Part shown: positions 8,452 to 42,343 of the stretch, piece after piece
Numbering within the stretch: position 1 is the first letter of the stretch
Layout: each line of letters begins with the position of its first letter
Source: an uncultured bacterium
Lineage (GTDB): Bacteria > Verrucomicrobiota > Kiritimatiellia > RFP12 > UBA1067
Reading direction: 5' to 3'
NCBI GenBank assembly: GCA_902800055.1
Contig: CADCCW010000001.1
Span: 14,932-78,931 of the forward strand
Length of the DNA: 64,000 bases
The notes under the pieces: model-generated
What the model saw: the letters and a program-made list of their open reading frames with translations, nothing else
Told to the model about the DNA's origin: nothing
Database searches by the model: none
Program-made: the position numbers and the translations under genes

Positions 8452-8472
8452 ATGGCAGTTTGTCCTTTTCGA

Positions 8473-8506
8473 GGTGTCTAGGTGTCTAGATTTCTAGGTT
8501 TCTAGG
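8473..8506. repeat. 8-nt period tandem array (GGTGTCTA x2, GATTTCTA, GGTTTCTA, GG..) in the rnfA-rnfB spacer
   Basis: Read directly from the sequence: ggtgtctaggtgtctagatttctaggtttctaggagac. Confidence 0.8.
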
Positions 8507-10995: not shown

Positions 10996-12687
10996 TCACT
11001 CCACCGCGGCGACTACGTCGCCCTTGACTACCTGGGCGCCGTGCTTGGCGAGGAACGTGATCCTGCCGGACGCGGACGCCTTGATCGGGTTGAAAAGCTT
11101 CATCGCCTCGACGACGCACACCGCGTCGCCGGCCTTGACCTGCGCGCCGTCCGCCGCCAGCGGCGGCTTGCCGGGGGCGTCGCTGCGGTAGAAGGTGCCG
11201 TTGAGCGGCGCGAGGACCGGAGTGCCCTTCGCCGCCGCCGCGGGCTTCGCGGCGGGAGCGGCGGCAGCCGCGGTGGGCGCCGCGGCAGGCGCGGCGTTCG
11301 CGGCCTCCTCCTGGTCGGCGGGAATCGGCCCGCCCTCCTTACGCCACTTGAAGTAGCCGAGCGCGACCTCGGGGAAGAGCGCGTAGGAGAGGATGTCCTC
11401 CTCGGCGCGGATCGTGTTCGGCGGCAGTTCCGCCGCGGCCTTCTCGAGCCCCGGCCCGAGCAGGTCGGCGGGACGGCACGAAATCGGCTTCAGCCCGCCG
11501 CAGAGGCGCTTCCTCAGCTTCGGCGCGATCGGCGCCGGCGTCGCGCCGTAGTAGCCAGCGGCGTAGCGCTTCGTCTCGTCGGTCACCATCGAGTAGCGCT
11601 CGCCCGAGAGCACGTTGAGGACGCTCTGCACGCCCACGATCTGCGAAGTCGGCGTCACCAGCGGCGGATAGCCGAGGTCGGCGCGCGCGCGCGGCAGCTC
11701 GGCGAGCACCTCGTCGAGCCGGTCGAGCGCGCCCTGCTGGGCGAGCTGCGAGCGGAGGTTGGAGATCATGCCGCCGGGAATCGCGTGGACGAGCACGCCC
11801 GCGTCCACCGGCTCCACGCCGCGGGACGACGCCGGCTGGCGCTTTGCCTTCAGCTCGCGGAAGTACGAGTTGATCTTCGAGAGCGCCGCGCGGTCGAGCC
11901 CGCAGTCGTAGCCCTCGGACTCGAAGACGGAGAGCATCGACTCCACCGGCGGCTGGGACGAGAACGAGGAGAGCGTCGAGATCGCGCAGTCGAAGCAGCC
12001 CGCCCCGGCCTCAGCCGCCGCGAGGTACATCGCCGCGGCCATGCCGCTCGTCATGTGCGAGTGGATCTCCACCGGCATCTTCGGCATCGCGCGGCGCAGC
12101 GCCTTCACCAGCTCGCGCGCCGCGCCAGGGGTGAGGATGCCCGCCATGTCCTTGATCGCCAGCGAGTCGATGCCCATCGCCTCCTGCGCCTTGGCGAGCT
12201 CGACGTACTTCTCGACCGTGTGCACCGGCGAGGTGGTGTAGCAGAGCGTGCCCTGCGCGTGGCCGCCGTACTTCTTCACGCTGGCAACCGCGGTCTCGAG
12301 GTTGCGCGGGTCGTTGAGCGCGTCGAAGACGCGGAAGATGTCCATGCCGTTCTCGCACGCAAGCGCGACGAACCGCTCCACGACGTCGTCGGGATAGTGG
12401 CGGTAGCCGAGCAGGTTCTGGCCGCGGAGCAGCATCTGGAGCGGCGTCTTCCTGCACACCGCCTTGATGCGGCGGAGCCGCTCCCACGGATTCTCGCGCA
12501 GGAAGCGCATGCACACGTCGAACGTGGCGCCGCCCCAGCACTCGAGCGCGTAGTAGCCGGCGTTGTCAATGGCCTCGGCGATGCCCAAGATGTCGTCGGT
12601 GCGCATCCTCGTCGCCCACAGCGACTGGTGCGCGTCCCTGAGCGTCGTGTCGGTGATGCGCAGGACTTTCTTCTTCTCTTGCTTCAT
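10996..12687 (-). CDS. Oxaloacetate decarboxylase alpha / pyruvate carboxylase subunit B-type carboxyltransferase with C-terminal biotinyl domain
   Basis: The real start is MKQEKKKVLRITDTTLRDAHQSL at 12687. It has the HMGL-like TIM-barrel pattern, an Ala/Pro linker and the biotin attachment motif VVEAMKLFNPI. Confidence 0.85.
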   Translation of the reverse strand: MKQEKKKVLRITDTTLRDAHQSLWATRMRTDDILGIAEAIDNAGYYALECWGGATFDVCMRFLRENPWERLRRIKAVCRKTPLQMLLRGQNLLGYRHYPDDVVERFVALACENGMDIFRVFDALNDPRNLETAVASVKKYGGHAQGTLCYTTSPVHTVEKYVELAKAQEAMGIDSLAIKDMAGILTPGAARELVKALRRAMPKMPVEIHSHMTSGMAAAMYLAAAEAGAGCFDCAISTLSSFSSQPPVESMLSVFESEGYDCGLDRAALSKINSYFRELKAKRQPASSRGVEPVDAGVLVHAIPGGMISNLRSQLAQQGALDRLDEVLAELPRARADLGYPPLVTPTSQIVGVQSVLNVLSGERYSMVTDETKRYAAGYYGATPAPIAPKLRKRLCGGLKPISCRPADLLGPGLEKAAAELPPNTIRAEEDILSYALFPEVALGYFKWRKEGGPIPADQEEAANAAPAAAPTAAAAAPAAKPAAAAKGTPVLAPLNGTFYRSDAPGKPPLAADGAQVKAGDAVCVVEAMKLFNPIKASASGRITFLAKHGAQVVKGDVVAAVE

Positions 12688-12696
12688 ATCGTGCGT

Positions 12697-12705
12697 ATTA
12701 TAGCA
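12697..12705 (-). promoter_or_regulatory. Extended -10 box TGCTATAAT, 9 nt upstream of the oadA-like ATG
   Basis: The minus strand reads AAATATGCTATAATACGCACGAT-ATG. This is an AT-rich 9-mer in otherwise GC-rich DNA. Confidence 0.45.
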
Positions 12706-12733
12706 TATTTCCGTCGAAATTGGATGCCGAACA

Positions 12734-12764
12734 CTGGCTGCTGGTTGCTGGCTGCTGGCTGTTG
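12734..12764. repeat. Heptamer array CTGGCTG/CTGGTTG (4 units) bracketed by GAACACT direct repeats, upstream of the oadA-like gene
   Basis: gaacaCTGGCTGCTGGTTGCTGGCTGCTGGCTGttgaacact. GAACACT occurs at 12729-12735 and again at 12764-12770. Confidence 0.8.
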
Positions 12765-12770
12765 AACACT

Positions 12771-12786
12771 TCCAGCGCATGCGCTG
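12771..12786. promoter_or_regulatory. Perfect 16-nt palindrome CCAGCGCATGCGCTGG between xerD and the oadA-like gene
   Basis: The sequence is its own reverse complement. It lies about 85 nt upstream of the oadA-like ATG and 14 nt after the xerD stop. Confidence 0.35.
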
Positions 12787-12799
12787 GCTGCTAGCCAAT

Positions 12800-16733: not shown

Positions 16734-17885
16734 TCACGCCGTTGGTTGTGTTTTCAAGCTGTGCGAAAGCTCCCTCCTCGCGGTTTCCAGCCGCGCGGTG
16801 AGCCGCGCGTACGCGGCGGCGCGGACTGATTCCCAGTCGCCGCGGTCCCTGAGCACGGCGAGCACGCGGCGCGTCACCCGCTCCCAGTCGCAGTCGTAGA
16901 CGCTGCCCTCGACGACCTGGCCGAAGTTGGCCAGCCAGTTGGCGAGCTTCGAGCCGCGCGCAATGCCGAGCCCCATGGTGCCGGCGTTCGCGGCGAGGAT
17001 CAGCAGATGCAGCCGGCTCGAGAGGACGACGTCGCATTTCGCCGCGGCTTCCACCACCGCCTCCGGCGTCGCGCCCGCGATGCACTCCACGCCAAGCCGT
17101 CCAAGGAGTGCGCGATCGGTCCTGGGGTTCATCGGGATGCCGAGGACGCGTGCGCCGGACGCGCGGACGTCATCAATCAGTTTGCTCAACCCAGCCAGGT
17201 CGGAAACCTGCCGCTGAGTCGAGATGCAGAGGCCGAGGGTGGGGGATGGGGAATGGGGAACGGGGAACGGGGAATGGGGAATGGGGGATGGGGGATGGGG
17301 GGCGGGGAGCAGGATTGCGGTGTCGGCGGCTACCTTGGCGCCGGAGAATCCCATCGTCGCCAGCATCGCCGCGCTCTCGGGGTCGCGCAGCCACACGCCG
17401 CGGCAGCGCGGCAGAATCGCCGCGATGCGCCGCGCGAGACGGGAACGGAGGCGCTGCTCGTACCAGTCGACGAGCCCAAGGCACTGGAGCAGCAGACGGC
17501 GCTTGCCGTGGGCCTTGAAGAAGACGGGGTTCAGTTCGTCGTCCATGCCGACGCCCCAGACGTAGGTCGCAACTCCCTCGCGCTGCGCGATTTCAAGGAG
17601 GTCAAGCGCGACGTCGGGATAGTCGGAAAGTCCTGTCGCGCCGCACCAGACGTAGGCATCGCGGCCGCGGACCGCCGCGGCAAAGCCGTCGAGCGGCGTT
17701 CCGGCGAAGCCGAACGGAGGTACCACCTCCACGCCCAGCAGCTCCGCAGTCGCCGGATCGGCCGTCGCCACCGCCAGCTCCACGCCGGGCAGCGACGACT
17801 TGAGCAACTTGACGACGCAGGCGACAATCGCCTCGTCGCCGATGTTGTCGCAGCCAAGCGGAATGCCCCCGAGCAGAACCCTCAT
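16734..17885 (-). CDS. Polysaccharide pyruvyl transferase family protein (carries an in-frame heptamer-repeat insert)
   Basis: N-terminus GGIPLGCDNIGDEAI, and a C-terminal half with VVLSSRLHLLILAANAGTMGLGI, typical of the CsaB/WcaK-like PS_pyruv_trans family. The insert reads PHPPSPIPHSPFPVPHSPSP. Confidence 0.7.
   Translation of the reverse strand: MRVLLGGIPLGCDNIGDEAIVACVVKLLKSSLPGVELAVATADPATAELLGVEVVPPFGFAGTPLDGFAAAVRGRDAYVWCGATGLSDYPDVALDLLEIAQREGVATYVWGVGMDDELNPVFFKAHGKRRLLLQCLGLVDWYEQRLRSRLARRIAAILPRCRGVWLRDPESAAMLATMGFSGAKVAADTAILLPAPHPPSPIPHSPFPVPHSPSPTLGLCISTQRQVSDLAGLSKLIDDVRASGARVLGIPMNPRTDRALLGRLGVECIAGATPEAVVEAAAKCDVVLSSRLHLLILAANAGTMGLGIARGSKLANWLANFGQVVEGSVYDCDWERVTRRVLAVLRDRGDWESVRAAAYARLTARLETARRELSHSLKTQPTA
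17241..17310. repeat. GGGGRAY heptamer array, about 10 units (G-quadruplex motif), in frame inside the pyruvyl transferase gene
   Basis: GGGGGAT GGGGAAT GGGGAAC GGGGAAC GGGGAAT GGGGAAT GGGGGAT GGGGGAT GGGGGGC GGGGAGC on the plus strand. Translated on the minus strand it gives PHPPSPIPHSPFPVPHSPSP. Confidence 0.9.
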
Positions 17886-29679: not shown

Positions 29680-31646
29680 AGCCTGGCCTCCATTTCCCTT
29701 CTGACGGTCTTGACGTCGCCGCCGGATGCCATCGCCATGATCGCCTTGCCCGACTTGGCGACGTGCCGGCGCACGTAGCCGAACACCGAGCGCGGCGTCT
29801 GGCCGGCGCCGACGTGGAGGATGACGGCGTCGCAGAGCCCGAGCAGCTGGTCGAAGAAGGTGCCGCCGATGCGGACGCCGCCTTCCATCCTGACGAAGAT
29901 GTTGCCGTAGGAGTTCTTCAGCTCCGCGAGGTCCGCCTGCAGGATCTGCAGCTCCGTCGGAGCCATCGCGAACCGGTTGGCCGTCGGGAACCAGCCGTGC
30001 GCGCCGCTGCGCATGACGCCGATCATCTGCTCGGCGTCCTTGGGCGGGTCGAAGTTAGCGCTGGAGACGACGTCGAGCAGAAAGGAGTTCACGCCCGACA
30101 TTAGCGCGGTGGCGTCCACGGTGTGCGAGAAGTCCTCGCGGATTTCCACGCCGGGCAGCCGGCACACGAGCACGACGGGCGTCTTTTCGGCGGAAAGGAG
30201 CATCTTCAGCGCCACCACGCCCATGACCTCGCGGTCCTCGTCTTCCGGCATGGCTCCGGGAATCGGCAGCGAACCGAGGAACGAAATGGCGGGATACGCC
30301 TCGATCTCCCGTCCGCTGCGCACCTTGCCGAACACCAGCTCCAGCGCGACGACCCACAGCATGGCGACGAACAGGCACACCCCGGCGGCGCCGAGGGACA
30401 GGACGAGCTGCTTCGTGCCGAACGGACCCTTGTCGCTCGACCCGCCCGCGTGCTCGATCTGCCTGAGGTCGTTTTTCAGCGCGCCGGAGAGGTAGGTGAT
30501 GTTGCTGAGCTTCTCCTCCAGCTCGCGGATCGACGCGGCGATGTCCGACCGGTGCGTCTGGAGCCGCTCGTATTCGGGAATCAGCGCCGCCAGCTCCGCC
30601 GCGCGCTTGTCGTTGTCGGCAAGCTCCTGCTCCACCGCGCGGCGCTTTTCGGCGAGCGCGGACATGCGCGTGAGGCACTCGGCGAGCTCGCCGGCAGACT
30701 TCTCCAGCTGGTCGAGATCGTCGAGGTTCAGGTCCTCCACGCCCTTGGCCTTCAGGAACTCCTGCATCTCCCTGACGTACTTCTCGCGCTCCTCCAGCTT
30801 GCCCGCCACCTTCGGGTTGATGTCGGTGTACTTCTCGCGCAGCGACTTCAGCTCCTTTTCGACCGCCGCTATCGCCTCCGCGCGCTTGCGGATCGCCTGC
30901 GCATTCTCGGTGATCACGGTCCCGGCCGTGCCGACGATCTGCTCCAGCCGCTTCTTCTTCAGCTCCTCGTTCGCCAGCTCCACGCCGATGGCAGAAGCGT
31001 TCTTGCGCTGGTCGGACATGAGCGCGTTGATGGCGACAAGTGCGTCCTGCGGAGCCATGACGCTCGTCTTCGCCTTGAGCTTGGTCTCGGCGGCATCGAT
31101 CTCGGAAAGCTCCTCCAGGAGCTTCGCCTTGCGGTCCCGGATCGACGCGCCCCAGGCCTCGAGGTCTTTCGCGCGGTATGCCGCGTATTCGTTGATCAGC
31201 GCCTCGGCGTAGGCGTTCACCTTCTTGACCGCCCCCTTCCACGACTGCGACGCGGCGGTCAGGGTGAAGAGGTTGGTCGGCTTCTTCTCCTGCTTGATCG
31301 TAATGTCAAAGGCAAGGCACTCCTTCTCCGCCTGCGGCATGTCGACCTTGCTGGCGATACCGCGCTTGAGCGAGGCTCGGTCGAGAATGGACATAATCTG
31401 CTTGTCGTTGATGGTATCGATGTCCGCCACCTTCCGAGGATTGTAGAGGAGCCGCGTGGTCGCCGTGAAGCGACCGACGCTTTTCGCGCCCCTGAAGGTA
31501 AGATACGCGGCAAAAGCGCCAAAGAGAAAGACGAAAAGCAGCGCGAACAGCCACGCCCACTTGAGCACGATGACAAACACAACCTTCTGCAGCGTCATTA
31601 GCCGCTGCATCTGTTCGCGTTCATTCTCTGTCAGTTCTTCGCTCAA
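29676..31646 (-). CDS. Polysaccharide co-polymerase (Wzc/GumC-like) with degenerate C-terminal P-loop domain; TTG start
   Basis: Two TM segments flank a roughly 380-aa coiled-coil-rich periplasmic region (Wzz/PCP architecture). The C-terminal 200 aa occupy the BY-kinase position, but I see no GK[ST] Walker A and no Tyr cluster. The start is TTG 31646. Confidence 0.7.
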   Translation of the reverse strand: MSEELTENEREQMQRLMTLQKVVFVIVLKWAWLFALLFVFLFGAFAAYLTFRGAKSVGRFTATTRLLYNPRKVADIDTINDKQIMSILDRASLKRGIASKVDMPQAEKECLAFDITIKQEKKPTNLFTLTAASQSWKGAVKKVNAYAEALINEYAAYRAKDLEAWGASIRDRKAKLLEELSEIDAAETKLKAKTSVMAPQDALVAINALMSDQRKNASAIGVELANEELKKKRLEQIVGTAGTVITENAQAIRKRAEAIAAVEKELKSLREKYTDINPKVAGKLEEREKYVREMQEFLKAKGVEDLNLDDLDQLEKSAGELAECLTRMSALAEKRRAVEQELADNDKRAAELAALIPEYERLQTHRSDIAASIRELEEKLSNITYLSGALKNDLRQIEHAGGSSDKGPFGTKQLVLSLGAAGVCLFVAMLWVVALELVFGKVRSGREIEAYPAISFLGSLPIPGAMPEDEDREVMGVVALKMLLSAEKTPVVLVCRLPGVEIREDFSHTVDATALMSGVNSFLLDVVSSANFDPPKDAEQMIGVMRSGAHGWFPTANRFAMAPTELQILQADLAELKNSYGNIFVRMEGGVRIGGTFFDQLLGLCDAVILHVGAGQTPRSVFGYVRRHVAKSGKAIMAMASGGDVKTVRREMEARL

Positions 31647-31675
31647 GGGCGTGAGATGTCCTTATAATTCAGTGA

Positions 31676-31684
31676 ATTTTAGCA
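31676..31684 (-). promoter_or_regulatory. Extended -10 box TGCTAAAAT upstream of the wzc-like gene (29-nt leader)
   Basis: The minus strand reads ATATATGCTAAAATTCACTGAATTATAAGGACATCTCACGCCC-TTG. It overlaps the stop of the upstream GT4 gene. Confidence 0.35.
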
Positions 31685-32980
31685 TATATTGGTGTAGAAA
31701 TCAACCAGTCTGGCGGCGAGGACAGCCCAGTCGTACTCATGCGCGGCGGCAACCCCGGCAGCGGACATCTCCGCGCGCTCCGCGAAAGCCTTGTCGACCG
31801 CCGCGTCCAGCGCCGCCGCATCGCCGGGTGCGAACACCGCCGCCGCGCCTGGATGCGCCGCGCAGAGCCTCCCGAGCCCGCCCACGTCGCTTGCCGCCAC
31901 CGGCAGCCCCGCCGCCCAGGCCTCGAGGACGACGATGCCGAACGGCTCGTGGCGGCTCGCGAGCACAAAGACGTCGGCGTTCCGGTACTCTGCGAGCAGC
32001 TCGGGGCTGCCCGGCTTCAGCGCGCCGACGAACGCGACGCGATCTGAGACGCCTAGCTCGACGGCGCGGCGCTCGAGCTCCTCGCGGTAGTCGGGCTGGG
32101 TGACAGGGCCAACCAGGCGAAGCGCGCGCCCAGGATGGCGCGACAGATGCTCGACGAGCGCCAGCTGGTTTTTCTGGCGGTCGATCCGCGCGACGCATAG
32201 GAGCGTGGCGGAGCTCCCGGAGTTTCCGGTTTCCCCGGAGTTGCCGGCGAAGAGGCGCGTGTCCACACCATTGGGCAGAAACATCACATGCGGGTGCTTC
32301 GCGCGATAACGCTCGTATTCGTCCTCGCCCACGCAGACGATGCCGTCCGCGTCCTCGGGGATGCGGCGGACCCAGCCCATCGCATAGTCGACGAGCTTTC
32401 CCCACGGCAAACGTCCGCGGGTCGGGGCCTTCAGGCTCTTCGCCTCCGCCGTCGGCACGTTTGCTCCGCCGCCGTGGAGGGAGATAACGGTTTTTGGTTC
32501 GGTAGTTTGGTGGTTGGGTGGTTGGGTGGTTGAGTGGGCAACCCTAAGGCACAGTTCCGCGATGCGCGCCATCGCGTGGCAATGGATGACGTCCGGCTGC
32601 CATTCACGGAGCGCCTTGCCAAGTCCCGGCACAAACGGGTTTCCGCCCTTGCGGTCGAGCTCGGCGACAAGCTGCTTCGGCATCGGCCACCAGGGATAGA
32701 CCGGCCTGAAGCGGAGGATTTCAATACCGTCGACAGTCTCTGCGAATTGTCTGTTTTTCCAACACAAAGAACACAGAGAGCGCAAAGAGCGCAAAGCCCC
32801 CAAAAAGCCCTTTGTGTCCTTTGTGTTCTTTGTGTTAAAATCTTTCCACAGCGCAGTTGTAGCGAAGATGCGCACTTCGTGCCCCGCTTCCTGCTGGGCC
32901 TTGGCGAGGTTCCACACCACCTGCTCGGTGCCGCCCCAGTCGTCGAACGAGAGCCGCCTCAGGACGTGCGCGATTCTCAT
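31679..32980 (-). CDS. Family 4 glycosyltransferase carrying two in-frame repeat-cassette inserts
   Basis: MRIAHVLRRLSFDDWGGTEQVVWNLAKAQQEAGHEV N-terminus. The C-terminal half reads LLCVARIDRQKNQ..., ASRHEPFGIVVLEAWAAGLPVAASDVGG. The inserts NTKNTKDTKGFLGALRSLRSLCSLC and STTQPPNHQTTEPKT interrupt the N-terminal domain. Confidence 0.75.
   Translation of the reverse strand: MRIAHVLRRLSFDDWGGTEQVVWNLAKAQQEAGHEVRIFATTALWKDFNTKNTKDTKGFLGALRSLRSLCSLCWKNRQFAETVDGIEILRFRPVYPWWPMPKQLVAELDRKGGNPFVPGLGKALREWQPDVIHCHAMARIAELCLRVAHSTTQPPNHQTTEPKTVISLHGGGANVPTAEAKSLKAPTRGRLPWGKLVDYAMGWVRRIPEDADGIVCVGEDEYERYRAKHPHVMFLPNGVDTRLFAGNSGETGNSGSSATLLCVARIDRQKNQLALVEHLSRHPGRALRLVGPVTQPDYREELERRAVELGVSDRVAFVGALKPGSPELLAEYRNADVFVLASRHEPFGIVVLEAWAAGLPVAASDVGGLGRLCAAHPGAAAVFAPGDAAALDAAVDKAFAERAEMSAAGVAAAHEYDWAVLAARLVDFYTNIC
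32489..32537. repeat. 8-nt period array (GTTGGGTG-type, about 6 units) in frame inside the GT4 gene
   Basis: ggtttttg gttcggta gtttggtg gttgggtg gttgggtg gttgagtg gg. Translated on the minus strand it gives HSTTQPPNHQTTEPKT. Confidence 0.85.
32761..32836. repeat. 76-nt hairpin-forming cassette built from 9-nt units (CACAAAG / CTTTGTG arms), in frame inside the GT4 gene
   Basis: AACACAAAGAACACA (32761-32775) is the exact reverse complement of TGTGTTCTTTGTGTT (32822-32836). The interior AGCGCAAAG x2 ... CCTTTGTGT continues the imperfect pairing. Translated it gives NTKNTKDTKGFLGALRSLRSLCSLC. Confidence 0.9.
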
Positions 32981-35841
32981 CTTCCCTCCATCGACAACGC
33001 CTCGGCAAGGCTGGCTTTTGTTATCGGCTTGAGGAGAAGGCTGTCAAACCCGATCTCCGCGAACTTCGCCCGGAACTCCACATCCGCCGTGACGACGACA
33101 ACGCGCATGTCTGAAAGCGCGGGATCGGCCCGGATGGCCTTTACGAGCCCCGAACCGTCGAGCCGCGGCATCCACATGTCCGTGAGCACCAGGTCGAACC
33201 GTCCCGCCGCCGGCGACCTGAGGACCTCGAGCGCCTCCTGTCCGTCCCCGGCCGAGACGACCTCGAACTTTCCGAGGTTCTTGAGCTGCGCCTTGAGGAC
33301 CATGATGTTCATCTTCGAATCGTCCACGATCAGGATGCGGCGGGGGGAGCCCGACTCGGACGCCGGATGGACCGGCGCGACATGCGCGGGCATGCCATCG
33401 GCATTCAGCCCTTCGGCCTCGCACGTCTTCACTCCCGGTATCGTTACCGAGAACGTCGAGCCCTTCCCGAGTTCCGATTCGACGTTGAGTCTCCCGCCCA
33501 TCGCCGCGGAAAGCTGCTTGCAGATCGCAAGGCCGAGCCCCGTCCCCCCGTTGCGCGACAGCTTGGAGCCGACCTGGACGTAGGCTGAGCCGATGCGCGC
33601 GAGGTCCTCCTTGCTTATGCCGCATCCAGTGTCCGCCACCTCGATGCGCAGCGTGCCCGACTGCTCGTCCGCCCTCACGAACGACGCGTATATCTCGACA
33701 TAGCCATCGTGGGTGAACTTGACGGCATTGCCGACGAGGTTGAACAACATCTGTCGGATTCGCTGCGGATCGACCATCATCGGGGGCATCTCGTCGACAC
33801 GGCACCGGACTTCGATTCCGGCTTTCCCGCTCGCAACCTTAAAGGCGTCGGTCACCTCGCGCAGCAGCTTCGTGCAGTCAGTCGGCTCCGGCAGTATCTC
33901 CATCTTGCCGGACTCGAGCTTGGAAAGATCCAGGACATCGTTGACGAGCCCGAGGAGAGTCTTGCCGCTGGCGATGATGGCGTCTTCCGCCTGGACGCGC
34001 TCCGCCTCGGTGCTGAAGCCCGACTTCAGCATCTCAGAGAACCCGATTATCGCGTTGAGCGGCGTCCTGATGTCGTGGCTCACGGTCGAGAAGAAATAGC
34101 TCTTGGCCTTCGCCTTCTCCTTCTCCATATCGAGCTCGCGCCGGCGGAAGAGCATGTATACGGCGATCATCAGCACGAGCGCGAGGACGGTAAGGACGCT
34201 CTGCACGTCGCTGTTCCGGATTATCGTCTCGCGGACGACCTGCAGGTCGCGGCGGAGGCGGCCGTGCCAAGACTTCTCGCGGGCGATCCCGACCTCGTCT
34301 TCTGCGCCGGCCCGGCGGAAGACCTCGCCGTGGCTTTCCACGATGCCACAGTACGCCCGGCGCACGGTCTCGCCCGCCGTCTGGCGCGCCCAGACGTGCG
34401 AAAGCGCCACGATCACCAGGAAAAGCGAGACCCACACGACCGAGGAACGCCCGAACCGATGCGATTCGTCCCGGTGGAACGCGAACAGGAAGAACACGAG
34501 TCCCGCGATGCACAACAGCACCAGCGCGAGATACGAAACCGTCCCCATCGAAACCGAAAAGGCGGGAAGGAGGAAAAGTACCGCTATCGCGGCGGAGAAG
34601 AGAAGTCCGACTATCCCGGTGGCCGCAGAGACGCGGTCGCCTTCGCCTTTCGCCAGCTTGAAGGCGGCGGCGGACGTGTAGGCGTACGCCACCGCCGTGC
34701 CGACGAGCGCGACGTCGACTATGATGTCGACCACGGTCAGGCCAAGGGTAGACGATGCGACGGCGACGGCGGCAATGACGAACCCGGCGTTCCTCGCTGA
34801 AAGCGCACCCTTCTCCCTGCCGAGCCAGAGCGGCATCGCCCCGTCGTCCGCCATCGCCGCGAGAAGCCTGCTGGCGACGATAGTGTTCCCCAGGAGATTG
34901 GTGAACAGGGAGCAAAGAAGCGTAATCGCGAGCACCGCCAGTCCCGCTCCGCCGAGGACGCCCTTGACCATGTCGAAGGCGCGGAAGTTCGCGTTGCCAG
35001 ACTGCGAGACCGCGGCGGACCATCCCGCGCCGTCGCCACCCGCCGCCAGAACCGGGATCAGCATGGCCATGACATACGCGGCGACGGACGCGGCGATTGC
35101 CGCCACCATTATCCAGAAGGACCTCCGGACCGGAAACCGGAACTCCGCGGATATGCAGGATATGGATTCGATCCCCACGAAAAGCCAGGGGGAGATCATG
35201 AGTATGCCGAGGATCTGGACAAGGGGCGGGCCGCCGGAGGGGGAGAAGAACGGACGCATCGACGCGAGCCCCCCCTCGTTGCACGCCACTGCGGCTCCGA
35301 AGCAGGCGACCAGCCCCGCAGCCAAGACCAGGGCTGCCGCGATCTGCACCGCCGCCGCGACCCGCCGCCTGGCAATGAGCGCGGCGACGATGCCCATGGC
35401 CACCGTTACCATGGCTATGTCGCCAAGGCAGACCCTGAACCCGGCGACATGGTACTTGAATCCGAAATGAAGCGGATTTCCCCCGAGCAGATAGCGGACG
35501 ATGACGGTAAGCATCTCCGCATCGGCCCAGACTATCGCCGCGTAGGCGAGGCACAGAAACCATCCGCAGATGTATCCGTGGTCGTGCCCGAACGCCTTTT
35601 TCGCGTAGGAATACACCCCGCCGGGACCGGGACACTTCACCATCATGTAATGGAAATTCCACGCGATCACCACCATGGCGAGCGCGGCGACGGCAAGACC
35701 CAGAACCGTTCCGGCTGGACCGGCCTTGGGCAGAAACCCCGTCAAAGGCAGGGAAAGCACGTCCCAGCCCACGGCGCACCCGAACGCAACCGCCCATGCC
35801 CCCAGCGCGGAGAAATGGGCAAGACCACTCCTGTTGTTCAT
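32977..35841 (-). CDS. Hybrid sensor histidine kinase with N-terminal APC-superfamily amino-acid-permease domain (APC-HisKA-HATPase-REC)
   Basis: Residues ~1-480 are a 12-TM permease-like domain. FSALGAWAVAFGCAVGWDVL...AGPAGTVLG...FHYMMVKCPGPGGVYSYAKKAFG matches the APC N-terminal signature. Then the H-box FFSTVSHDIRTPLNAIIGFSEML, N/G boxes FNLVGNAVKF and DTGCGI...GTGLGLAICK, and a receiver ILIVDDS...DLVLTDMWMPRLDG...KP. Confidence 0.85.
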   Translation of the reverse strand: MNNRSGLAHFSALGAWAVAFGCAVGWDVLSLPLTGFLPKAGPAGTVLGLAVAALAMVVIAWNFHYMMVKCPGPGGVYSYAKKAFGHDHGYICGWFLCLAYAAIVWADAEMLTVIVRYLLGGNPLHFGFKYHVAGFRVCLGDIAMVTVAMGIVAALIARRRVAAAVQIAAALVLAAGLVACFGAAVACNEGGLASMRPFFSPSGGPPLVQILGILMISPWLFVGIESISCISAEFRFPVRRSFWIMVAAIAASVAAYVMAMLIPVLAAGGDGAGWSAAVSQSGNANFRAFDMVKGVLGGAGLAVLAITLLCSLFTNLLGNTIVASRLLAAMADDGAMPLWLGREKGALSARNAGFVIAAVAVASSTLGLTVVDIIVDVALVGTAVAYAYTSAAAFKLAKGEGDRVSAATGIVGLLFSAAIAVLFLLPAFSVSMGTVSYLALVLLCIAGLVFFLFAFHRDESHRFGRSSVVWVSLFLVIVALSHVWARQTAGETVRRAYCGIVESHGEVFRRAGAEDEVGIAREKSWHGRLRRDLQVVRETIIRNSDVQSVLTVLALVLMIAVYMLFRRRELDMEKEKAKAKSYFFSTVSHDIRTPLNAIIGFSEMLKSGFSTEAERVQAEDAIIASGKTLLGLVNDVLDLSKLESGKMEILPEPTDCTKLLREVTDAFKVASGKAGIEVRCRVDEMPPMMVDPQRIRQMLFNLVGNAVKFTHDGYVEIYASFVRADEQSGTLRIEVADTGCGISKEDLARIGSAYVQVGSKLSRNGGTGLGLAICKQLSAAMGGRLNVESELGKGSTFSVTIPGVKTCEAEGLNADGMPAHVAPVHPASESGSPRRILIVDDSKMNIMVLKAQLKNLGKFEVVSAGDGQEALEVLRSPAAGRFDLVLTDMWMPRLDGSGLVKAIRADPALSDMRVVVVTADVEFRAKFAEIGFDSLLLKPITKASLAEALSMEGR

Positions 35842-37830
35842 TTACCTGTAGCCTCCTATCAAAGAACGAAACGACAGCCACGAGTATTTCACGAGGCCGT
35901 AGGCGTAGCGACGCCACAGACGGCCAGGCTCCTGGACGATGCGGTACACCCACTCGAGGCCCGTCTTCTGCATCCACTTGGGCGCGCGCTTCACGCGGCC
36001 GGCGAGAAAGTTGAACGTGCCGCCGACGCCAATCATCGCGCCGACGTCAAGCTTCGCCTTGTTGCGGCCCATCCACAGTTCCTGCTTGGGGTTGCCGAGC
36101 GCGACGAAGAGGATGTCTGGCTTCGCGGCGTTGATGCGCTCGACGATCTCGGGCTGTGGCTCGTCCAGCTTCACGAAGGCCGGGTCGATGCCGGCAACTC
36201 TCAACCCGCAACTCTCAACTCCAAACTTCCCGAACGCCTCTTCGACCGCGTCCATGTCGCCGCCCAGCACATACACCGACAACCCCTCCTCCGCGCATCG
36301 GCGCAGAATCGCCGGCACCATGTCCGCCCCGGTGACGCGCTCCGGCAGCGGCTGGCGCAGAATCCGCGAGAGCGCGACGATCGGCATGCCGTCGGCGGTG
36401 ACGAGGTCGGCGTCCTTCAGGTAGCCCCAGAGCTCGTCGTTGCCGCCGAACGGCCAGCCGCTCACGGCGTTGGCGACGAAGTCGACGTTGAGCGTAGCGA
36501 CGACGAATGGGGAACGGGGAACGGGGAACGGGGAATGGTGTTGCCGCGCCATCGCGATGATGCGCTCCACCGCCTCGGACTCGGTCACCTTCGCGACCGG
36601 GATCCCGAAAAGGCGAGAAACGCCTCGCTCCCTCAACAGCTCCACAATCCCCTTCGCATGGTCTTCCCAGGAGAAGCGCTTGATCCACTCGAACCCGCGT
36701 TTTATCCGTGCCTCGCGCTCCGCGGCGAATTCATCGAGGAGCCGCGCAAGCGCCGCGGCGATTTCGTCGACGCTCTCGGGATCGAAGGTGAGCGCGACGT
36801 CCCCCGCGATCTCGCCCAGGGATCCGTTGTTCGAGCAGGCGCACGGGATACCCTGCGCCATTGCCTCAATGAGCGAAAGCCCGAAGCCCTCGAAGAGGCT
36901 GGGGAAGACGTAGAAACCGGCCTCTGACCAGAGCCGCTCCAGTTCCGCGGCGGGGACGAATCCGACAAAGCGGATGAACTCGGCGTGCGGCGAGGCGGCG
37001 GCGGCGGCGTGGACCGCCTCGGCGTCCTTCCAGTCCGCGCCGGCGAGGACGAGCGGATGCGCCGCGGCGGTTTCGCGCGGCAGGCGCGAATACGCCTCGA
37101 TGAGCCGCACGTGGTTCTTGCCCGGATGCTCGATGCGGGAGATGTAGAGGATGGCGGAGGAAGAAGGGATATTAGCGATCGAAGAGGTAGAAGCGATAGC
37201 TCGCTCGCCCTCAACACCCCTTTTATCCTTTTGATCACTTTCATCCCTTCCCCTTGAAAGCCCATTATACAGCACCGTCACCTGGTCCGCGCGGCAGTGC
37301 CAGAACTTCACCATGTCGTCCCTGGTGGCGCCGCTCACCGCGACGAGGTGCCGCGCCTTCTTCGCGTAGTGGGGGAGGACATGCGCGAGGTAGAACATCC
37401 TGAGGCGCGAGTACTTGCCGGGGATGTGGAAATTCGCGAGGTCATGCACCGTCGCCGCCGTCGGCAGCGGGTAGAACGCGCAGACGCGGCGGTTGGCGGC
37501 GCAGATGAAGAAGCCGTCGAAGTCGCCGCGGTGCCGGCGGATCCAGAACGGCAGCACGAAGAGGTGCCAGAGCATCGACAGCGCCGGACGCCGCGTCCAG
37601 CGCGGGGCGGAAATCGATGGTATCTGACATGGGACATCAGACGCGAGACGAGAGGTTTTCCCGCGTCTATCGTCTAGCGTCTCACGCCCAAGACGGAGTT
37701 CTTCTCCCGGTTCGCAAAGGAGCGTCAGTTCGTGGCCCTGCGCCGCGAGCTCGCGCACGACCTCGCGCACGTAGACCGAAATGCCGCTCTTGCCGCCGTC
37801 GTAGGGGACGCATGAGACGAGCAGTCTCAC
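35842..37830 (-). CDS. Bifunctional glycosyltransferase: GT4 domain fused to WecG/TagA/CpsF (GT26) domain; GTG start
   Basis: GTG 37830 forms a GTGA overlap with the upstream kinase stop. The N-terminal half is GT4 (ISRIEHPGKNH..., PSLFEGFGLSLIEAMAQGIPCACSNNGSL). The C-terminal half is GT26 (ATLNVDFVANA..., ADLVTADGMPIV..., ILFVALGNPKQELW..., IGVGGTFNFLAG...RAPKWMQKTGLEWVYRI). Two repeat inserts are present. Confidence 0.8.
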   Translation of the reverse strand: MRLLVSCVPYDGGKSGISVYVREVVRELAAQGHELTLLCEPGEELRLGRETLDDRRGKTSRLASDVPCQIPSISAPRWTRRPALSMLWHLFVLPFWIRRHRGDFDGFFICAANRRVCAFYPLPTAATVHDLANFHIPGKYSRLRMFYLAHVLPHYAKKARHLVAVSGATRDDMVKFWHCRADQVTVLYNGLSRGRDESDQKDKRGVEGERAIASTSSIANIPSSSAILYISRIEHPGKNHVRLIEAYSRLPRETAAAHPLVLAGADWKDAEAVHAAAAASPHAEFIRFVGFVPAAELERLWSEAGFYVFPSLFEGFGLSLIEAMAQGIPCACSNNGSLGEIAGDVALTFDPESVDEIAAALARLLDEFAAEREARIKRGFEWIKRFSWEDHAKGIVELLRERGVSRLFGIPVAKVTESEAVERIIAMARQHHSPFPVPRSPFVVATLNVDFVANAVSGWPFGGNDELWGYLKDADLVTADGMPIVALSRILRQPLPERVTGADMVPAILRRCAEEGLSVYVLGGDMDAVEEAFGKFGVESCGLRVAGIDPAFVKLDEPQPEIVERINAAKPDILFVALGNPKQELWMGRNKAKLDVGAMIGVGGTFNFLAGRVKRAPKWMQKTGLEWVYRIVQEPGRLWRRYAYGLVKYSWLSFRSLIGGYR
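36509..36538. repeat. GGGGAAY heptamer array (GGGGAAC x3, GGGGAAT) in frame at the GT4/GT26 domain junction
   Basis: gaatGGGGAACGGGGAACGGGGAACGGGGAATGGtg on the plus strand. Translated on the minus strand it gives HHSPFPVPRSPFVV. Confidence 0.9.
37158..37254. repeat. AT-richer low-complexity insert ending in a 9-nt period array (CCTTTTATC CTTTTGATC ACTTTCATC CCTTCCCCT) inside the GT4 domain
   Basis: Read directly from the sequence. Translated on the minus strand it gives GRDESDQKDKRGVEGERAIASTSSIANIPSSS, lying between the two Rossmann halves of the GT4 domain. Confidence 0.7.
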
Positions 37831-40800
37831 GATGCCGCCACCTCCCCGAAGAGGGCGCGGAGCTTGTCGCCCGTCACCGGCTTCGAGATCACCTTCGCGA
37901 ACAGGCTCATGTCGTAGGTGGAGCCGACGTCGACGTCGGCGGTCACGGCGACAACCGGGATCTCGGCGAGCCTGCGGTCCTTGCGCATCGCCTCGGCGAG
38001 CTGGGTGCCATCCATCTTCGGCATCCACATGTCGGTCAGCACGAGGTCGGGGATCCACTCGCTCATCACCTCGAGGGCGCGCTCGCCGTTCTCGGCGTAG
38101 CGGATGTCCTTGATCTTCAGGTTGCCGAGGTGGATGCCGAGGATCTTGCGGTTCATCGTCATGTCGTCGACGACCAGCACCCGGTCGGGCATGACGGCGC
38201 GGATCGTCTGCTCGGCGGCGCGCGGTATCATGGAGATGTTCTGGACGAGCACGAGGTCGGGGATGTCGATAACGAAGGTCGTGCCCTTGCCGAGCTCGCT
38301 TCTCGCCGTGATCGTGCCGCCGGCGTTGTCGACCATGCGCTTGACGATCGGCAGCCCGAGCCCGGTGCCCTTGATCTCGCCGGCGCTCGACTGCATGCGG
38401 CTGCGGATGTCCTGGATGAACGGGTCGAAGAGCCGGTCCATCTTGTCCCGCGAGATGCCGCAGCCGGTGTCGCTGACCTCGAGGTGGAGGTTGCACCTCG
38501 CGCCGTCCCACGCCGCCCGGACCACGATCTCGCCGTGCTCGGTGAACTTCGCGGCGTTGCCGACGAGGTTGATGAGGATCTGGCGGACGCCCTGCTGCGC
38601 CAGTTCGACGATCGGCAGCTGGTCGGCCGGCGGGGCCTCGATGCGGAGCTTCACGCCGTGGCGGCGGACGCGGTAGCCGAATATCGCCGGCAGCTCCCTG
38701 AGGAGCTGGCCGATGTCGCAGACGCCGGAGCGCATCTGCATCGCGCCGGCCTCGAGCTTGGAGAGGTCGAGGATGTCGTTGATGAGGTCAAGGAGCGCGT
38801 TGGAGCTGAGGAGGATGCCATCGATGTAATCCTTGCGCTTGGCTTCGTCGAGATCGGGAGCGGACATGAACTCGGCGAAGCCGATGACCGCGTTGAGCGG
38901 GGTCCTGAGCTCGTGAGACATCATCGCGAGGAACCTGGTCTTGGCCTGCGCGTGATCCTCGGCGATCGCGGCCGCCCTGTTCGCGCGCTTCGTCTGCTTG
39001 ACGAGGAGCGCTATCATGACGGCGCCGAATATTACGGCGACCAGCAGGATCACGAATACGGTGACCGCAATCCTGCGAATCAGCTCCTCCCGCGTCAGCC
39101 CGAACACGCGGTGGACGACCTGGCGTTCGGCGGCGTCGGCCATGAACATCTCCTGGAACTGGGTCTGGTCGATGCCGGTCATCACCTTGTTGAGGATCGA
39201 GACAAGCTCCTTGGGGACGTTCGGGCGCGCGAACATCTCGAACTCCTGGTACATGTCCTCGGCACCGAGCTCCTGCGCGATGCTCTGCGGGACGGGGACC
39301 GCGAATACGGACTTGGCGCCGTAGGTCGCGGCGGACGCCTTCACCGGATAGGGAATCCACAGGTCGGTGTCGCCGCGCAGAAACTTGGCCTCCGCCGTGC
39401 TTATGTCGGACTGCTTCGCGAGCGAGAACTTGAGTCCCGTCCGTACGCCGAGCTCTTCAAGGAGGTCGGCGACGAACCCGGCGGGCTTGCCGTCGGCGTC
39501 AAAGAGCGGGAACGGCCACGGCGAGAAGTCGATCATCACCGGGCTGTCGTTCTTCTGGCGGCGGTTGAGCCATCTCGACTCCTCCAACGAGAGCGCCGCC
39601 ATGTCGCTGCGCCTGCCGTAGTGGTGCTCGCTGATCATTCGGAGGTACTTCGGGAAGTCGTCGCAGATCTCGTCCATCGCCTTCTCAAGCTCCTCGAAGA
39701 GATCCTTTCGTCCAAGCGAGGTGCAGATGTACATCGGGTGCGAGGCGTAGAGGTGCAGCGCCTTCTCGTCCTTGAGTTCCGGCATTTCGACGTCCACGCA
39801 TGCGTCGACGTCGCCGCGGAAATAGGCGGAGAGCATGTCGCGGTCGGACGAGAACTCGACGCACGAGATGGACTCGTCGCTCTCAAACTGGCGGCGGGCG
39901 CGCTGCGAGCTGATGGTGCTGGCGAGGAGGCCCACCTTCATGCCGTGCCAGGTCTCTGGCTCGCCGGGCATGTAGGGGCTGTTGGGACGCGCCCAGAGGT
40001 ACACGCGCAGCATGCCCATCGGCGTGTGCGGGTAGTAGAACTGTTCGCGCCGCTGGGCGGCGAAGCCGATGCCGCCCACGATGTCGAGCCTGTTCTTCAT
40101 CACGTCCGCAAGGCTCTCGTCGTAGTCGCCGTAGACATAGTCTATCGTCCAGTGGGTGTGGCCGACGATGGACTTGATCCAGACCTCGAGCGCGCCGGAG
40201 CGCTCGCCGTCCGGCGTCACCTCGAAGAGGTCGCCGCGGCTGTACGCGGCTACGCGCACGCGCTTCTGCGGCTTCGAGACGCCGAGGAACTTCTCGCGCC
40301 ATTCGTCGTACTTGTCGATGTGCGCGATGTAGCACTCGCGATACGCCTTGGAGAGCTTCTTCAGGAGCTGCGGACGGCGCTTGTTGACCGCGAAGTAGAC
40401 GTTGCGCGAGCCGATCGGCACCACCTCCACGACACCCTCCGGCCGCTTGCCGAACGGAGTGTAGAGGAAGAGCGCGTCGATCTCGCCGTCGTGCAGCGCC
40501 TGCACGGCGCCGGCGCTCGTCGGGATCTCGACGTAGGTCGGCGAAAGGCGCGCTTGCTCGAAGTACCTGATGCGGTCGTTGTTGGAGATCTGACCCTGCG
40601 AAACCGGAGAGTAGCCGATGCGCATCCGCGGCCACTCGGTGATCTTGGTGGACATGAGCTCCATCGCGCGCGACGGCGTCGCGTAGAGGGCGAAATGCAT
40701 GCGCCCGAGCGGCTGCCGGGGGAAGTCGAAGTTCTCCAGCAGCTTCTTCGTGCGGAACGCGGAGCAGATGACGTCCGCGTTGGTGACGTCGGCCAGGTGG

Positions 40801-41386: not shown

Positions 41387-42343
41387 TTAGTTAAATACCT
41401 GCCAGTCGCGCCTCAGGTCCGGCGTGACGGCCCATTTTGCGCGGATTGCCGCGGCGATGCGCCGCAGCACCCGCACCTCCGGCGGCAGCGCGAAGGTCGA
41501 AAGTTCGCCCAACGTCCGCCGCCGCGCCACCCAGCGCAGCGCGCTGAAGACGCTCCTCGAGGCGTCGGAGAGCGCCGACACCTCGTCGTACGCATCGAGC
41601 CACGCCTCCCGCGCCCGCTCCCAGTTCGCGACCGGCTCGGCCTGCGGGCGGAACTTCCACGCCACCGCGGCGGAATAGAGCCCGTCGCCGAGCCGGTCCG
41701 CTCGCTCGTCCGCCCGCCACGCGTAGCGCCCGCCGGCGATGAGCCGCGCGTCGCCCGCGCCGAGCACGCACTTGTTGAGGTTGCGCGCGACGAACCCCCG
41801 GTCGCTCGACTCGTCCGCGAAGAGCAGCCCCATGCCGCGGTTCATCAGGAGGCGCGCGGCCTCCGTCCACGGCAGTTTCGCCGCGGGAATCTTCTCAATG
41901 GCAGCGAACAGCTCCGCCCCCTTCTTCCCGACGACGTCGAGATAGCCGCGGATCAGCTCCTGCACCATCAGGCGCGACTCGTCGTGCTTGAGCCGCCACG
42001 GCGTCTTCACCGCAAAGTCCACGTCCACGCCCAGCCGCTGCGTCCACTTCTCGGCAATTGGCTTCAATGCCTCGCCAACGGCTGCAATCGTCTCAGCCTC
42101 GGGCACGCCGTCTTCTGTAATCGCAAAGAAATCGAGGTCGTTCGACAGCACCGCCGTTCCCCGTTCCCCGTTCCCCATTCCCCGCTCTATCGCCCCGCCT
42201 TCGCCGCGGCCATAGCCGCCGCCGAGGACGACGCCTGCGAGCCTTGGAACGGCAAGCGCGGCAATCTCGCGCCCGATTTCGGCGCAAGCGTCGTCAATGA
42301 GCCGGTCAAGTTCCGGGCAACTGCCTGCAACATGCCGTCCCAT
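41387..42343 (-). CDS. Nucleotidyltransferase-fold (Pol-beta superfamily) protein with C-terminal helical domain
   Basis: GVVLGGGYGRGEGG...(insert)...LSNDLDFFAIT fits the minimal NTase pattern hG[GS]x9-13Dh[DE]h. The rest is helical and of no family I can name. The GGGGAAY array inserts between the G-rich loop and the DxD. Confidence 0.6.
   Translation of the reverse strand: MGRHVAGSCPELDRLIDDACAEIGREIAALAVPRLAGVVLGGGYGRGEGGAIERGMGNGERGTAVLSNDLDFFAITEDGVPEAETIAAVGEALKPIAEKWTQRLGVDVDFAVKTPWRLKHDESRLMVQELIRGYLDVVGKKGAELFAAIEKIPAAKLPWTEAARLLMNRGMGLLFADESSDRGFVARNLNKCVLGAGDARLIAGGRYAWRADERADRLGDGLYSAAVAWKFRPQAEPVANWERAREAWLDAYDEVSALSDASRSVFSALRWVARRRTLGELSTFALPPEVRVLRRIAAAIRAKWAVTPDLRRDWQVFN
42156..42184. 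repeat. GGGGAAY heptamer array (reverse orientation: GTTCCCC x3, ATTCCCC) in frame inside the NTase-fold gene
   Basis: ccGTTCCCCGTTCCCCGTTCCCCATTCCCCg on the plus strand. The coding (minus) strand therefore carries GGGGAATGGGGAACGGGGAACGGGGAAC, giving ERGMGNGERGT. Confidence 0.9.

Follow-up and report, generated by a model that had tools for sequence, protein, structure and literature searches.

How does a palindrome come to lie in frame inside the gene for an enzyme, and what keeps it there? The question is raised by a 64,000-nt stretch of DNA (the window; contig CADCCW010000001.1) from an uncultured rumen Kiritimatiellae bacterium. A first-pass annotation, made from the letters of the window, had pointed out a 76-nt hairpin cassette of 9-nt units at 32761-32836, within the gene of a family 4 glycosyltransferase (GT4), and had proposed that it is either a miniature palindromic insertion element or a structure generated by slippage. 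On balance, we favour the reading that the cassette is a copy of a dispersed palindromic repeat which the enzyme tolerates, in frame, in a disordered turn. The features on which this reading depends are listed here with their positions in the window:

31679-32980, minus strand: GT4 glycosyltransferase host gene, 433 amino acids (from the list of open reading frames, Pfam, homologues and orthologous neighbourhoods)
32741-32848, minus strand: whole lineage-specific segment, residues W45-A80 (from comparison of the site over 47 orthologous loci and from AlphaFold)
32810-32836, minus strand: 5' arm of the hairpin, in mRNA sense AACACAAAG AACACAAAG GACACAAAG, read NTKNTKDTK
32797-32809, minus strand: loop of the hairpin, in mRNA sense GGCTTTTTGGGGG
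32761-32796, minus strand: 3' arm of the hairpin, in mRNA sense CTTTGCGCT CTTTGCGCT CTCTGTGTT CTTTGTGTT, read LRSLRSLCSLC

The window sequence at 32761-32836 is AACACAAAGAACACAGAGAGCGCAAAGAGCGCAAAGCCCCCAAAAAGCCCTTTGTGTCCTTTGTGTTCTTTGTGTT. Its 15-nt termini, AACACAAAGAACACA and TGTGTTCTTTGTGTT, are exact reverse complements, and a repeat finder delimited 30-nt arms with 83% complementarity and a spacing of 16 nt, in agreement with the perfect ends and imperfect interior that had been annotated. Tandem Repeats Finder (TRF) reported period 9 on both arms (4.0 copies at 32761-32796 and 3.0 copies at 32810-32836), the 3' arm being one 9-nt unit longer than the 5' arm. The cassette lies in frame in the 433-amino-acid open reading frame (ORF) 31679-32980, in which residues 49-73 are NTKNTKDTKGFLGALRSLRSLCSLC; the annotated period, frame and translation were all correct. 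As had also been claimed, this palindromic, frame-neutral sequence is AT-richer than its host gene (46% G+C, compared with about 63-65% in the surroundings). Folding, which the annotation had proposed as a check, came out in its favour: the plus strand folded as DNA reached -20.2 kcal/mol (z -5.8) and the mRNA-sense strand folded as RNA reached -37.9 kcal/mol (z -5.6), values equalled in neither case by any of 200 dinucleotide shuffles. No stop codon occurs in the arms in any of the six frames. Searching Rfam with the whole window at gathering score gave no match, and a permissive search of 32600-33000 gave generic hairpin matches only (miRNA models), far below threshold. A terminator and promoter scan of 31600-33100 found nothing at the hairpin, where there is no G+C-rich stem followed by a T run; the tails of the hairpin, GGAAAAAC on the sense strand and AAAATCTT on the antisense strand, are not terminator-like.

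The host protein shows the domain pair of GT4 enzymes with the GT-B fold, Glyco_transf_4 at the N-terminus (PF13439, residues 15-242, E 3.8e-17) and Glycos_transf_1 at the C-terminus (PF00534, residues 254-404, E 2.3e-26). It has 2584 homologues, its relatives in the PDB are PimA- and MshA-type enzymes, and AlphaFold models it as two Rossmann-like halves (predicted template modelling score 0.75). A scan of one genome per species gave 55 loci encoding relatives of the protein, nearly all of them from uncultured rumen or gut metagenome-assembled genomes (MAGs) labelled Kiritimatiellae, Verrucomicrobia or Lentisphaerae. Loci are denoted below by L numbers and proteins by P numbers.

We aligned 32 homologues and then extracted the site of the cassette (site 1) from 47 loci. 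Ten codons (TALC.T..ET) make up the site in about 30 orthologues, against W45-A80 in the window, where the net gain is about 93 nt. In the N-terminal Rossmann domain, the segment 32741-32848 replaces a five-residue turn ('C.T..' or 'CGKER') that joins strands 2 and 3. Judged from this comparison, the hairpin is the core of an insertion of about 93 nt relative to an ancestral short loop, and the insert, bounded at about 32741-32848, is larger than the hairpin that had been annotated. In the AlphaFold model, residues 44-76 have a predicted local distance difference test score (pLDDT) below 50 and are located between the strands 35-41 and 79-83; the insert is thus predicted to form a disordered loop connecting two Rossmann-fold strands, the kind of position that the annotation had expected a structure model to reveal. 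No match to the insert peptide was found among the NCBIfam and Pfam models, in either orientation. Other orthologues carry unrelated fillers at the same site, for example a GGGGAAC array in L012 and L048.

The hairpin was recovered as DNA in 11 other copies (L002, L003, L004, L005, L006, L014, L177, L178, L179, L180 and L181), whose proteins are 63-93% identical to that of the window. All of these hairpins except one fold at -41 to -49 kcal/mol, and the three that were tested against shuffles gave z -5.8 to -9.2. Most start with TTAGCC(A/G)CAAAG and end with CTTTG(T/C)GGCTAA; the copies of the window and L002 have the ends AACAC ... GTGTT, with two pairs changed on both sides relative to the other orthologues. 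When the outer 20 bp of ten copies were taken in register, 93% of cells were paired and five pairs were altered on both sides. Neither the pairing nor the covariation score was reached by any of 500 shuffles, and sliding the partner by 1-3 columns lowered pairing to 33-52%.

Constraint is also visible within the unit. Among 33 units from copies at the GT4 site, positions 3, 5, 6, 8 and 9 are invariant and variation is found at 1, 2, 4 and 7 only. In the reading frame AAC ACA AAG, the invariant positions cover all three third codon positions, and the variable ones are first or second positions. The constraint is therefore on nucleotides; selection on the peptide would give the reverse, and the annotated view that the cassette is not protein-driven was borne out. 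Between distant orthologues and the window copy, the inserts diverge by 0.29-0.34 and the four-fold degenerate sites of the same genes by 0.5-0.64, a comparison in which low-complexity sequence aligns generously. As far as these sequences tell, the cassette is kept, or kept homogenised, as nucleic acid rather than as protein.

Differences between alleles indicate how the cassette changes. Compared to the window, L303 (P0001) has precisely lost one 9-nt unit in the 3' arm; whole-unit slippage occurs in the cassette. In L181 (P0005), a 5' arm of the window type is joined to a tail of the TTAGCC type, and the resulting broken hairpin folds at -27 kcal/mol. In the protein alignment, the three variable loops of the GT4 protein are combined in mosaic fashion. 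From these patterns, spread of the cassette by recombination between alleles is likely, repeated gain and loss being the alternative. Another of these copies, L180:3123-3413 (P0073), has a highly structured nested insertion of about 190 nt in the 9-mer hairpin, which comprises several G+C-rich stem-loops and adds about 80 residues in frame.

To what kind of sequence does the cassette belong? We defined a family as at least two tandem RRCRCAAAG units, often headed by T(T/G)A(A/G)CCRCAAAG, alone or as an inverted pair. The window copy and ten orthologous copies fit this definition, the orthologues with a TTAGCC head and a GGCTAA tail. Over 825 kb, a relaxed unit pattern matched almost only the GT4 site; the exceptions were 56243-56269 in the window, L049:4265 and a two-unit trace in L024. 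The window copy among them lies in another gene of the same strand:

56243-56269, minus strand: lone 9-mer array, in mRNA sense GCCGCAAAG AACGCAAAG GACGCAAAG, read SRKERKGRKE, in frame in a variable loop
54228-57728, minus strand: GH38-like (glycoside hydrolase family 38-like) gene hosting this array

The mRNA-sense sequence of the lone array is GCCGCAAAGAACGCAAAGGACGCAAAG, and the copy at L049:4265, which is intergenic, has 28 identical nt in common with it. The first-pass annotation had assigned this array (as 56241-56267) to the same 9-mer family, rightly so; it had assigned 37219-37254 to the family as well, and that array has a different unit (see below). At the loop of the lone array, the closer of the two homologues found is five amino acids shorter. 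With two homologues, a variable loop and a window protein just five amino acids longer, insertion at this place is suggested only tentatively.

Outside the lineage, scans with a 20-nt degenerate pattern returned at least 120 metagenome stretches (soil, water) and at least 120 viral stretches. The 80 metagenome loci returned lie on contigs of 32-68% G+C. Among the matches listed, a T(T/G)A(A/G)CC-type head, an inverted partner or at least four units were found in 48 of the 83 metagenomic arrays and 31 of the 85 viral ones, and hairpins in both orientations as well as lone arrays are all present. Several phage contigs hold three to four copies of the 9-mer array. On the evidence of these matches, the 9-mer family appears to be common to distant bacteria and phages. 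A literature search with the exact repeat sequences gave no relevant paper, and searches on nonamer repeats, Kiritimatiellae repeats and short tandemly repeated repetitive (STRR) sequences gave no description of the family.

Two observations concern the setting of these outside copies. In viral sequences (L251:3184, L259:4 and 3286, L200:6779), lone arrays often end 14-24 nt upstream of an ORF start, before a ribosome-binding-like sequence, a placement that may point to a role of the family in leaders or between genes. In a cultured cyanobacterium, Calothrix sp. PCC 7716, the plasmid AP025020.1 carries the array GAACCGCAAAGGACGCAAAGAACGCAAAG at 166902-166931 (L182:2500-2530) between two hypothetical genes, and the record has three matching places for the 9-mer array.

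The course of events that we propose would be as follows. In a rumen Kiritimatiellae lineage, about 93 nt of repeat DNA would have entered a permissive surface turn of the GT4 protein, and the ribosome would thereafter have read the insert through as a disordered loop. The element is built of two RRCRCAAAG arrays in inverted orientation, with ends of the type TTAGCC/TTAACA ... GGCTAA/TGTTGG, and is a member of an array family that is dispersed, mostly intergenic, over several phyla and phages. Because the units are stop-free in six frames and the length is a multiple of three, the insertion and the gain or loss of units leave the gene intact. Its later evolution has been that of a nucleic acid, by A/G transitions, whole-unit slippage and recombination between alleles, with the consensus and the complementarity of the arms kept. 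The insertion was presumably near-neutral with respect to selection, with a selfish or mutational origin, and hairpin-templated correction rather than functional selection probably keeps the arms complementary. To fill tolerant loops with tandem arrays and array-plus-inverted-array hairpins, with units of 7, 8 or 9 nt, is a general habit of these genomes.

Several results weigh against this account. When empty and filled sites were compared, no direct repeat was found at the boundaries, that is, no target-site duplication; the flanks of the hairpin, TGGAAGGGATT... and ...AAAAACGAACC..., are also missing from empty sites, so there is no clean insertion boundary. Outside the GT4 site, there are only about four copies in 750 kb of related genomes, and among the 80 metagenomic loci no gene of note, transposase-like or other, recurs beside the elements. 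Of the proposed miniature insertion element, insertion relative to a short ancestral loop was retained; mobility was not, in view of the target sites, the neighbouring genes and the copy number. Moreover, in a rough neighbour-joining gene tree the hairpin-bearing genes are not monophyletic: L007, with an empty site, falls within the main hairpin clade and three hairpin genes fall outside that clade. A single ancient insertion is therefore insufficient without recombination or repeated gain and loss. The consensus of the cassette persists despite near-saturated synonymous sites, unlike neutral junk, and selection or continuing homogenisation is therefore required. Finally, the sense strand of ten site-1 stems has 34 G.U pairs and 11 A.C mismatches, which could mean selection at the mRNA level.

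Selection is central to the strongest alternative, in which the cassette is a functional nucleic-acid structure and the protein loop is the price paid for it. In the operon mRNA, the structure could be a stem that slows the ribosome, protects upstream RNA or is cleaved by an RNase specific for double strands; on the non-template strand of the DNA, it could be a cruciform or a single-strand hairpin. Consensus and pairing kept while four-fold sites diverge by 0.5-0.64, compensatory changes in the arms and invariant third codon positions are all consistent with it, as are the ratio of 34 to 11 and the greater stability of the sense strand in 9 of the 12 site-1 copies. Some RNA-level role of the family is also suggested by the conservation of the units across phyla and phages, together with the lone arrays close upstream of ORF starts. 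However, no significant strand bias was found over 35 structured inserts at four loops (21 of the 35; Wilcoxon p 0.24). Since the site-1 copies are related, 34:11 is not a count of independent events, and strand-biased deamination could also give this ratio. About 30 orthologues do without the element and others have unrelated fillers in its place, the L181 allele has a broken hairpin, and there is neither a terminator-like tail nor an Rfam family. We regard a functional structure as unlikely, if more deserving of attention than the explanations that follow.

Two other measures were not used in this judgement. A cutoff on minimum free energy per nucleotide was non-discriminating in G+C-rich sequence, and the 'hairpin-like' labels that resulted from it were disregarded. 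The orientation of arrays relative to crude ORF calls (54 sense, 10 antisense) was rejected as evidence because stop-free arrays over-extend ORFs and the unit pattern in some cases matches ordinary coding sequence, for instance where a conserved viral protein reads RAQRAQR.

Slightly more doubtful is the idea that (RRCRCAAAG)n is an undescribed, constrained nucleic-acid element of phages and bacteria across phyla, read by a conserved factor or process. Candidate roles would be one at the RNA level, in leaders or between genes, or that of a product of a repeat-adding enzyme, and the stop-free units would allow such an element to colonise protein loops.

Another alternative is a local origin of the cassette, and it has to be considered together with the other arrays and hairpins with units of 7, 8 or 9 nt. 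Those of the window are:

32495-32537, minus strand: second variable loop of the GT4 protein, after helix 138-149; 8-nt array TGGTTGGG x5.4, read HSTTQPPNHQTTEP
32209-32247, minus strand: third variable loop of the GT4 protein, the linker between the Rossmann domains; weak 9-nt array read AGNSGETGNSGSS
37163-37254, minus strand: second, more decayed hairpin cassette with 9-nt units of the GGGATGAAA type (inverted repeat I3)
17240-17307, minus strand: heptamer array GGGGAAT/GGGGAAC (letters of the plus strand), read PHSPFPVPHSP, in frame in a pyruvyl-transferase gene
36505-36535 and 42154-42184: sister GGGGAAY arrays
8472-8506: short-unit array AGGTGTCT x4.4, just upstream of the Fe-S protein gene 7642-8451
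12734-12761: short-unit array CTGGCTG x4, at the very 5' end of ORF 10996-12798 (carboxylase subunit), perhaps within the leader

The 8-mer array in the GT4 gene had been noticed in the first pass, and TRF placed it at 32495-32537 with 5.4 copies. At this second loop, orthologues have GGGGAAC heptamers, CAACTCA or nothing, and at the third loop L179 and L012 have hairpins of 8-nt units. The array at 37219-37254 proved to be the 3' arm (plus strand) of the hairpin 37163-37254, which had gone unseen. This hairpin, with z -2.3, is read in frame in a GT4-WecG fusion gene (35842-38511), where it occupies the linker between the domains; the homologue of the hairpin in L025 is well preserved (z -5.8). 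In nearly every orthologue the linker has a different filler, 42 to 210 nt in length, such as a near-perfect CTTCGGA heptamer hairpin in L029 (z -11) or a hairpin of 8-nt units in L034 (z -4.3). In-frame hairpins of CGGACTT and its inverse were seen at the linker at L029:833-895, L046:5734-5814, L007:5397-5547 and L018:8435-8649, the last with about 24 units.

The GGGGAAY arrays occupy three sites of the window, in frame in three unrelated genes, and recur in orthologues at GT4 sites 1 and 2 (site 2 in L007, L016, L021, L024 and L029); such arrays are also seen at L046:10136 and in L012. The two at 36505 and 42154 are near-identical, in opposite orientation and 5.6 kb apart. By their sequence, the GGGGAAT/GGGGAAC arrays would be capable of forming G-quadruplexes. 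The heptamer array at 17236-17310, like the arms of the 9-mer hairpin, is stop-free in all six frames, which explains the survival of both inside ORFs. With arrays and hairpins of 7- and 8-nt units occupying equivalent loops in frame, tolerance of the cassette does not depend on the 9-nt period, a point on which the first-pass annotation found no support.

Arrays with a period of 7-9, at least 3.5 copies and a score of at least 45 numbered 10.5 per 100 kb in Kiritimatiellae loci, 0 in shuffled sequence and 0 in 84 kb from five unrelated taxa. A distant Verrucomicrobiota MAG has three heptamer arrays within 21 kb (L052:14128, 19664 and 20818); the array-rich habit may extend across the Planctomycetes-Verrucomicrobia-Chlamydiae (PVC) group. 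In addition, inverted pairs of AT-rich heptamers (AGTGTAA/TTTACAC, AAAATGT/CATTTTA) were observed at L005:8142/8195, L009:1991/2080, L046:2013/2067, L007:1582/1675 and L016:1859/1965, in several loci at apparently corresponding upstream positions. They may be an intergenic version of the array-plus-inverted-array architecture.

A local origin would mean that a short motif was amplified by slippage and an inverted copy was then made by fold-back (snap-back) synthesis during break repair, with nothing imported. Whole-unit slippage is observed, arrays of period 7-9 are very dense in these genomes, and the unit family found in a given loop differs from lineage to lineage, as if each had arisen on the spot. 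In L012 and L048, the GGGGAAC array at the site is similar to the sequence of empty sites, GGCAAGGAACGCGAA. There is a precedent in yeast, in which fold-back templated inverted insertions at breaks have been documented (PMC11724301). On the other hand, the units and ends of the cassette (TTAGCCRCAAAG ... CTTTGYGGCTAA) equal those in unrelated bacteria, phages and a cyanobacterial plasmid, and the same units and ends are found at two other Kiritimatiellae loci, those sharing 28 identical nt. Such identity makes an independent local origin very unlikely, and slippage alone, acting locally, does not account for the cassette; the slippage proposed in the first pass applies to later dynamics, as in the allele one 9-nt unit short, and not to origin.

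Still less credible is a role as contingency loci, in which gain and loss of units would alter the products of surface-polysaccharide genes in a gut population (phase or antigenic variation). Like simple-sequence contingency loci of host-associated bacteria, for example those of Haemophilus (PMC12721329, PMC8262952), the window has tandem short units in genes for surface polysaccharide (glycosyltransferase, pyruvyl-transferase and glycosidase genes) and unit-number polymorphism exists. The neighbouring arrays of 7- and 8-nt units would shift the frame. However, a 9-nt unit is unable to switch the gene off, as the one-unit indel observed leaves the frame intact; at 85-94% matches the arrays are imperfect, which lowers slippage; the loop is far from the conserved catalytic motifs in the alignment; and no out-of-frame allele at an array was seen in the best 120 homologues or in the loci.

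Adaptation of the protein, with the lysine-rich arm packing on the leucine/cysteine-rich arm and the DNA palindrome as a by-product, ranks lower again and is hardly tenable. In orthologues with 63-89% identity, the peptide pattern (T/A)K(N/D)(T/A)K ... (S/P)L(C/R)SL can be recognised. Against this, the invariant third and variable first and second codon positions are the reverse of protein constraint, every orthologue with the peptide has the palindrome, AlphaFold gives the loop no confident structure, and the peptide matches no protein family. An artefact of assembly or library construction, which can create chimeric palindromes, is practically negligible because a protein identical to the window GT4 was assembled independently from another sample and 11 or more other assemblies, made in different studies, contain diverged versions whose divergence tracks that of the genes.

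Among known systems, Rickettsia palindromic elements (RPEs) are closest in behaviour to the cassette. According to a MITE review that summarises Ogata et al. (2000 and 2002), RPEs are Rickettsia-specific palindromes of about 100-150 bp with a conserved peptide per family, dispersed between genes and in frame in unrelated enzyme genes (PMC10969869). Both RPEs and the cassette are translated within the host protein where the fold tolerates them, and no transposase is known for either. The 9-mer family likewise occurs in frame in genes (32741-32848, 56243-56269) and between genes (L049:4265). The cassette differs in its length of 76-108 nt, its tandem 9-nt units, its occurrence in several phyla and phages, and a peptide that varies while the nucleotides are kept. 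It is set apart from RPEs by host, length and a peptide with no NCBIfam or Pfam match, a distinction that does not draw on the nucleotide consensus of RPEs.

STRR heptamers and small dispersed repeats of cyanobacteria, reportedly treated by Mazel et al. in 1990 and Elhai et al. in 2008, have very short tandem units (7 nt), sometimes occur as inverted pairs and can sit harmlessly inside genes. They resemble our arrays in their very short, dispersed tandem units; a 9-mer copy is present in the Calothrix plasmid and G-rich GGGGAAY heptamers are common in the window and in related loci. The differences are the Kiritimatiellota host, other units, the systematic occupation of protein loops and the array-plus-inverted-array architecture.

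MITEs (miniature transposable elements with inverted repeats) and repetitive extragenic palindromes (REPs, or REPINs when combined in hairpins) are also short, of non-coding size, hairpin-forming, dispersed and polymorphic in presence or absence between related genomes. The cassette has terminal inverted repeats as MITEs do (30-nt arms with the outer 15 nt perfect), and the comparison of empty and filled sites gave no target-site duplication. The two large REP super-families are defined by a GTAG or CGTC end tag (PMC3733652); the cassette ends with TTAGCC, TTAACC or TTAACA and has no GTAG or CGTC. In the sampled DNA its copy number is low, and no associated transposase gene was seen. Coding palindromes of Nematomorpha (PMC6649704) are likewise long inverted repeats within translated sequence that combine structure and coding, but both of their arms encode conserved protein under strong amino-acid selection, whereas the cassette is in a dispensable, disordered loop and under nucleotide constraint. 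Two further comparisons were abandoned. The DRT10 tandem-repeat reverse transcriptase makes 9-nt repeats, but with an unrelated reported motif, GAATCATTG, and there is no link to the locus; it remains a remote idea. Resemblances to attC, the DnaA box, uptake sequences and sites of integration host factor were dropped because the consensus positions do not fit.

The genes around the cassette form part of a polysaccharide locus. Directly upstream of the GT4 gene is the following:

32977-35841, minus strand: permease/histidine-kinase/receiver fusion, 954 amino acids

The start of the GT4 gene overlaps this gene by 4 nt. The fusion consists of an amino-acid-permease-like membrane domain, a histidine kinase and a receiver, and its position is conserved across orthologous loci. 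The order on the minus strand is the GT4-WecG fusion (35842-38511), the permease/histidine-kinase/receiver fusion, GT4, a 656-amino-acid protein for which no Pfam match was recorded in orthologous loci, and a Poly_export protein.

Bacterial examples of coding palindromes read in frame are, to our knowledge, essentially those of Rickettsia. The cassette is a second, unrelated bacterial case, in a free-living gut phylum and at 65% G+C. Its architecture differs, with hairpins made from tandem units and the nucleotide sequence maintained while the peptide drifts. It also marks permissive glycosyltransferase loops of these bacteria as hot spots that are repeatedly refilled by structured repeat DNA, which is of relevance to the annotation and structure prediction of metagenomic proteins, to the origin of new loop sequence and to the use of such genes as phylogenetic or functional markers. 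If the sharing of the 9-mer family holds, it would be a tractable new class of repeats whose function or spread is directly testable. Should (RRCRCAAAG)n be an element constrained across phyla, the GT4 copy would offer a view of a general mechanism by which palindromes with tandem units of 7, 8 and 9 nt are written into genomes.

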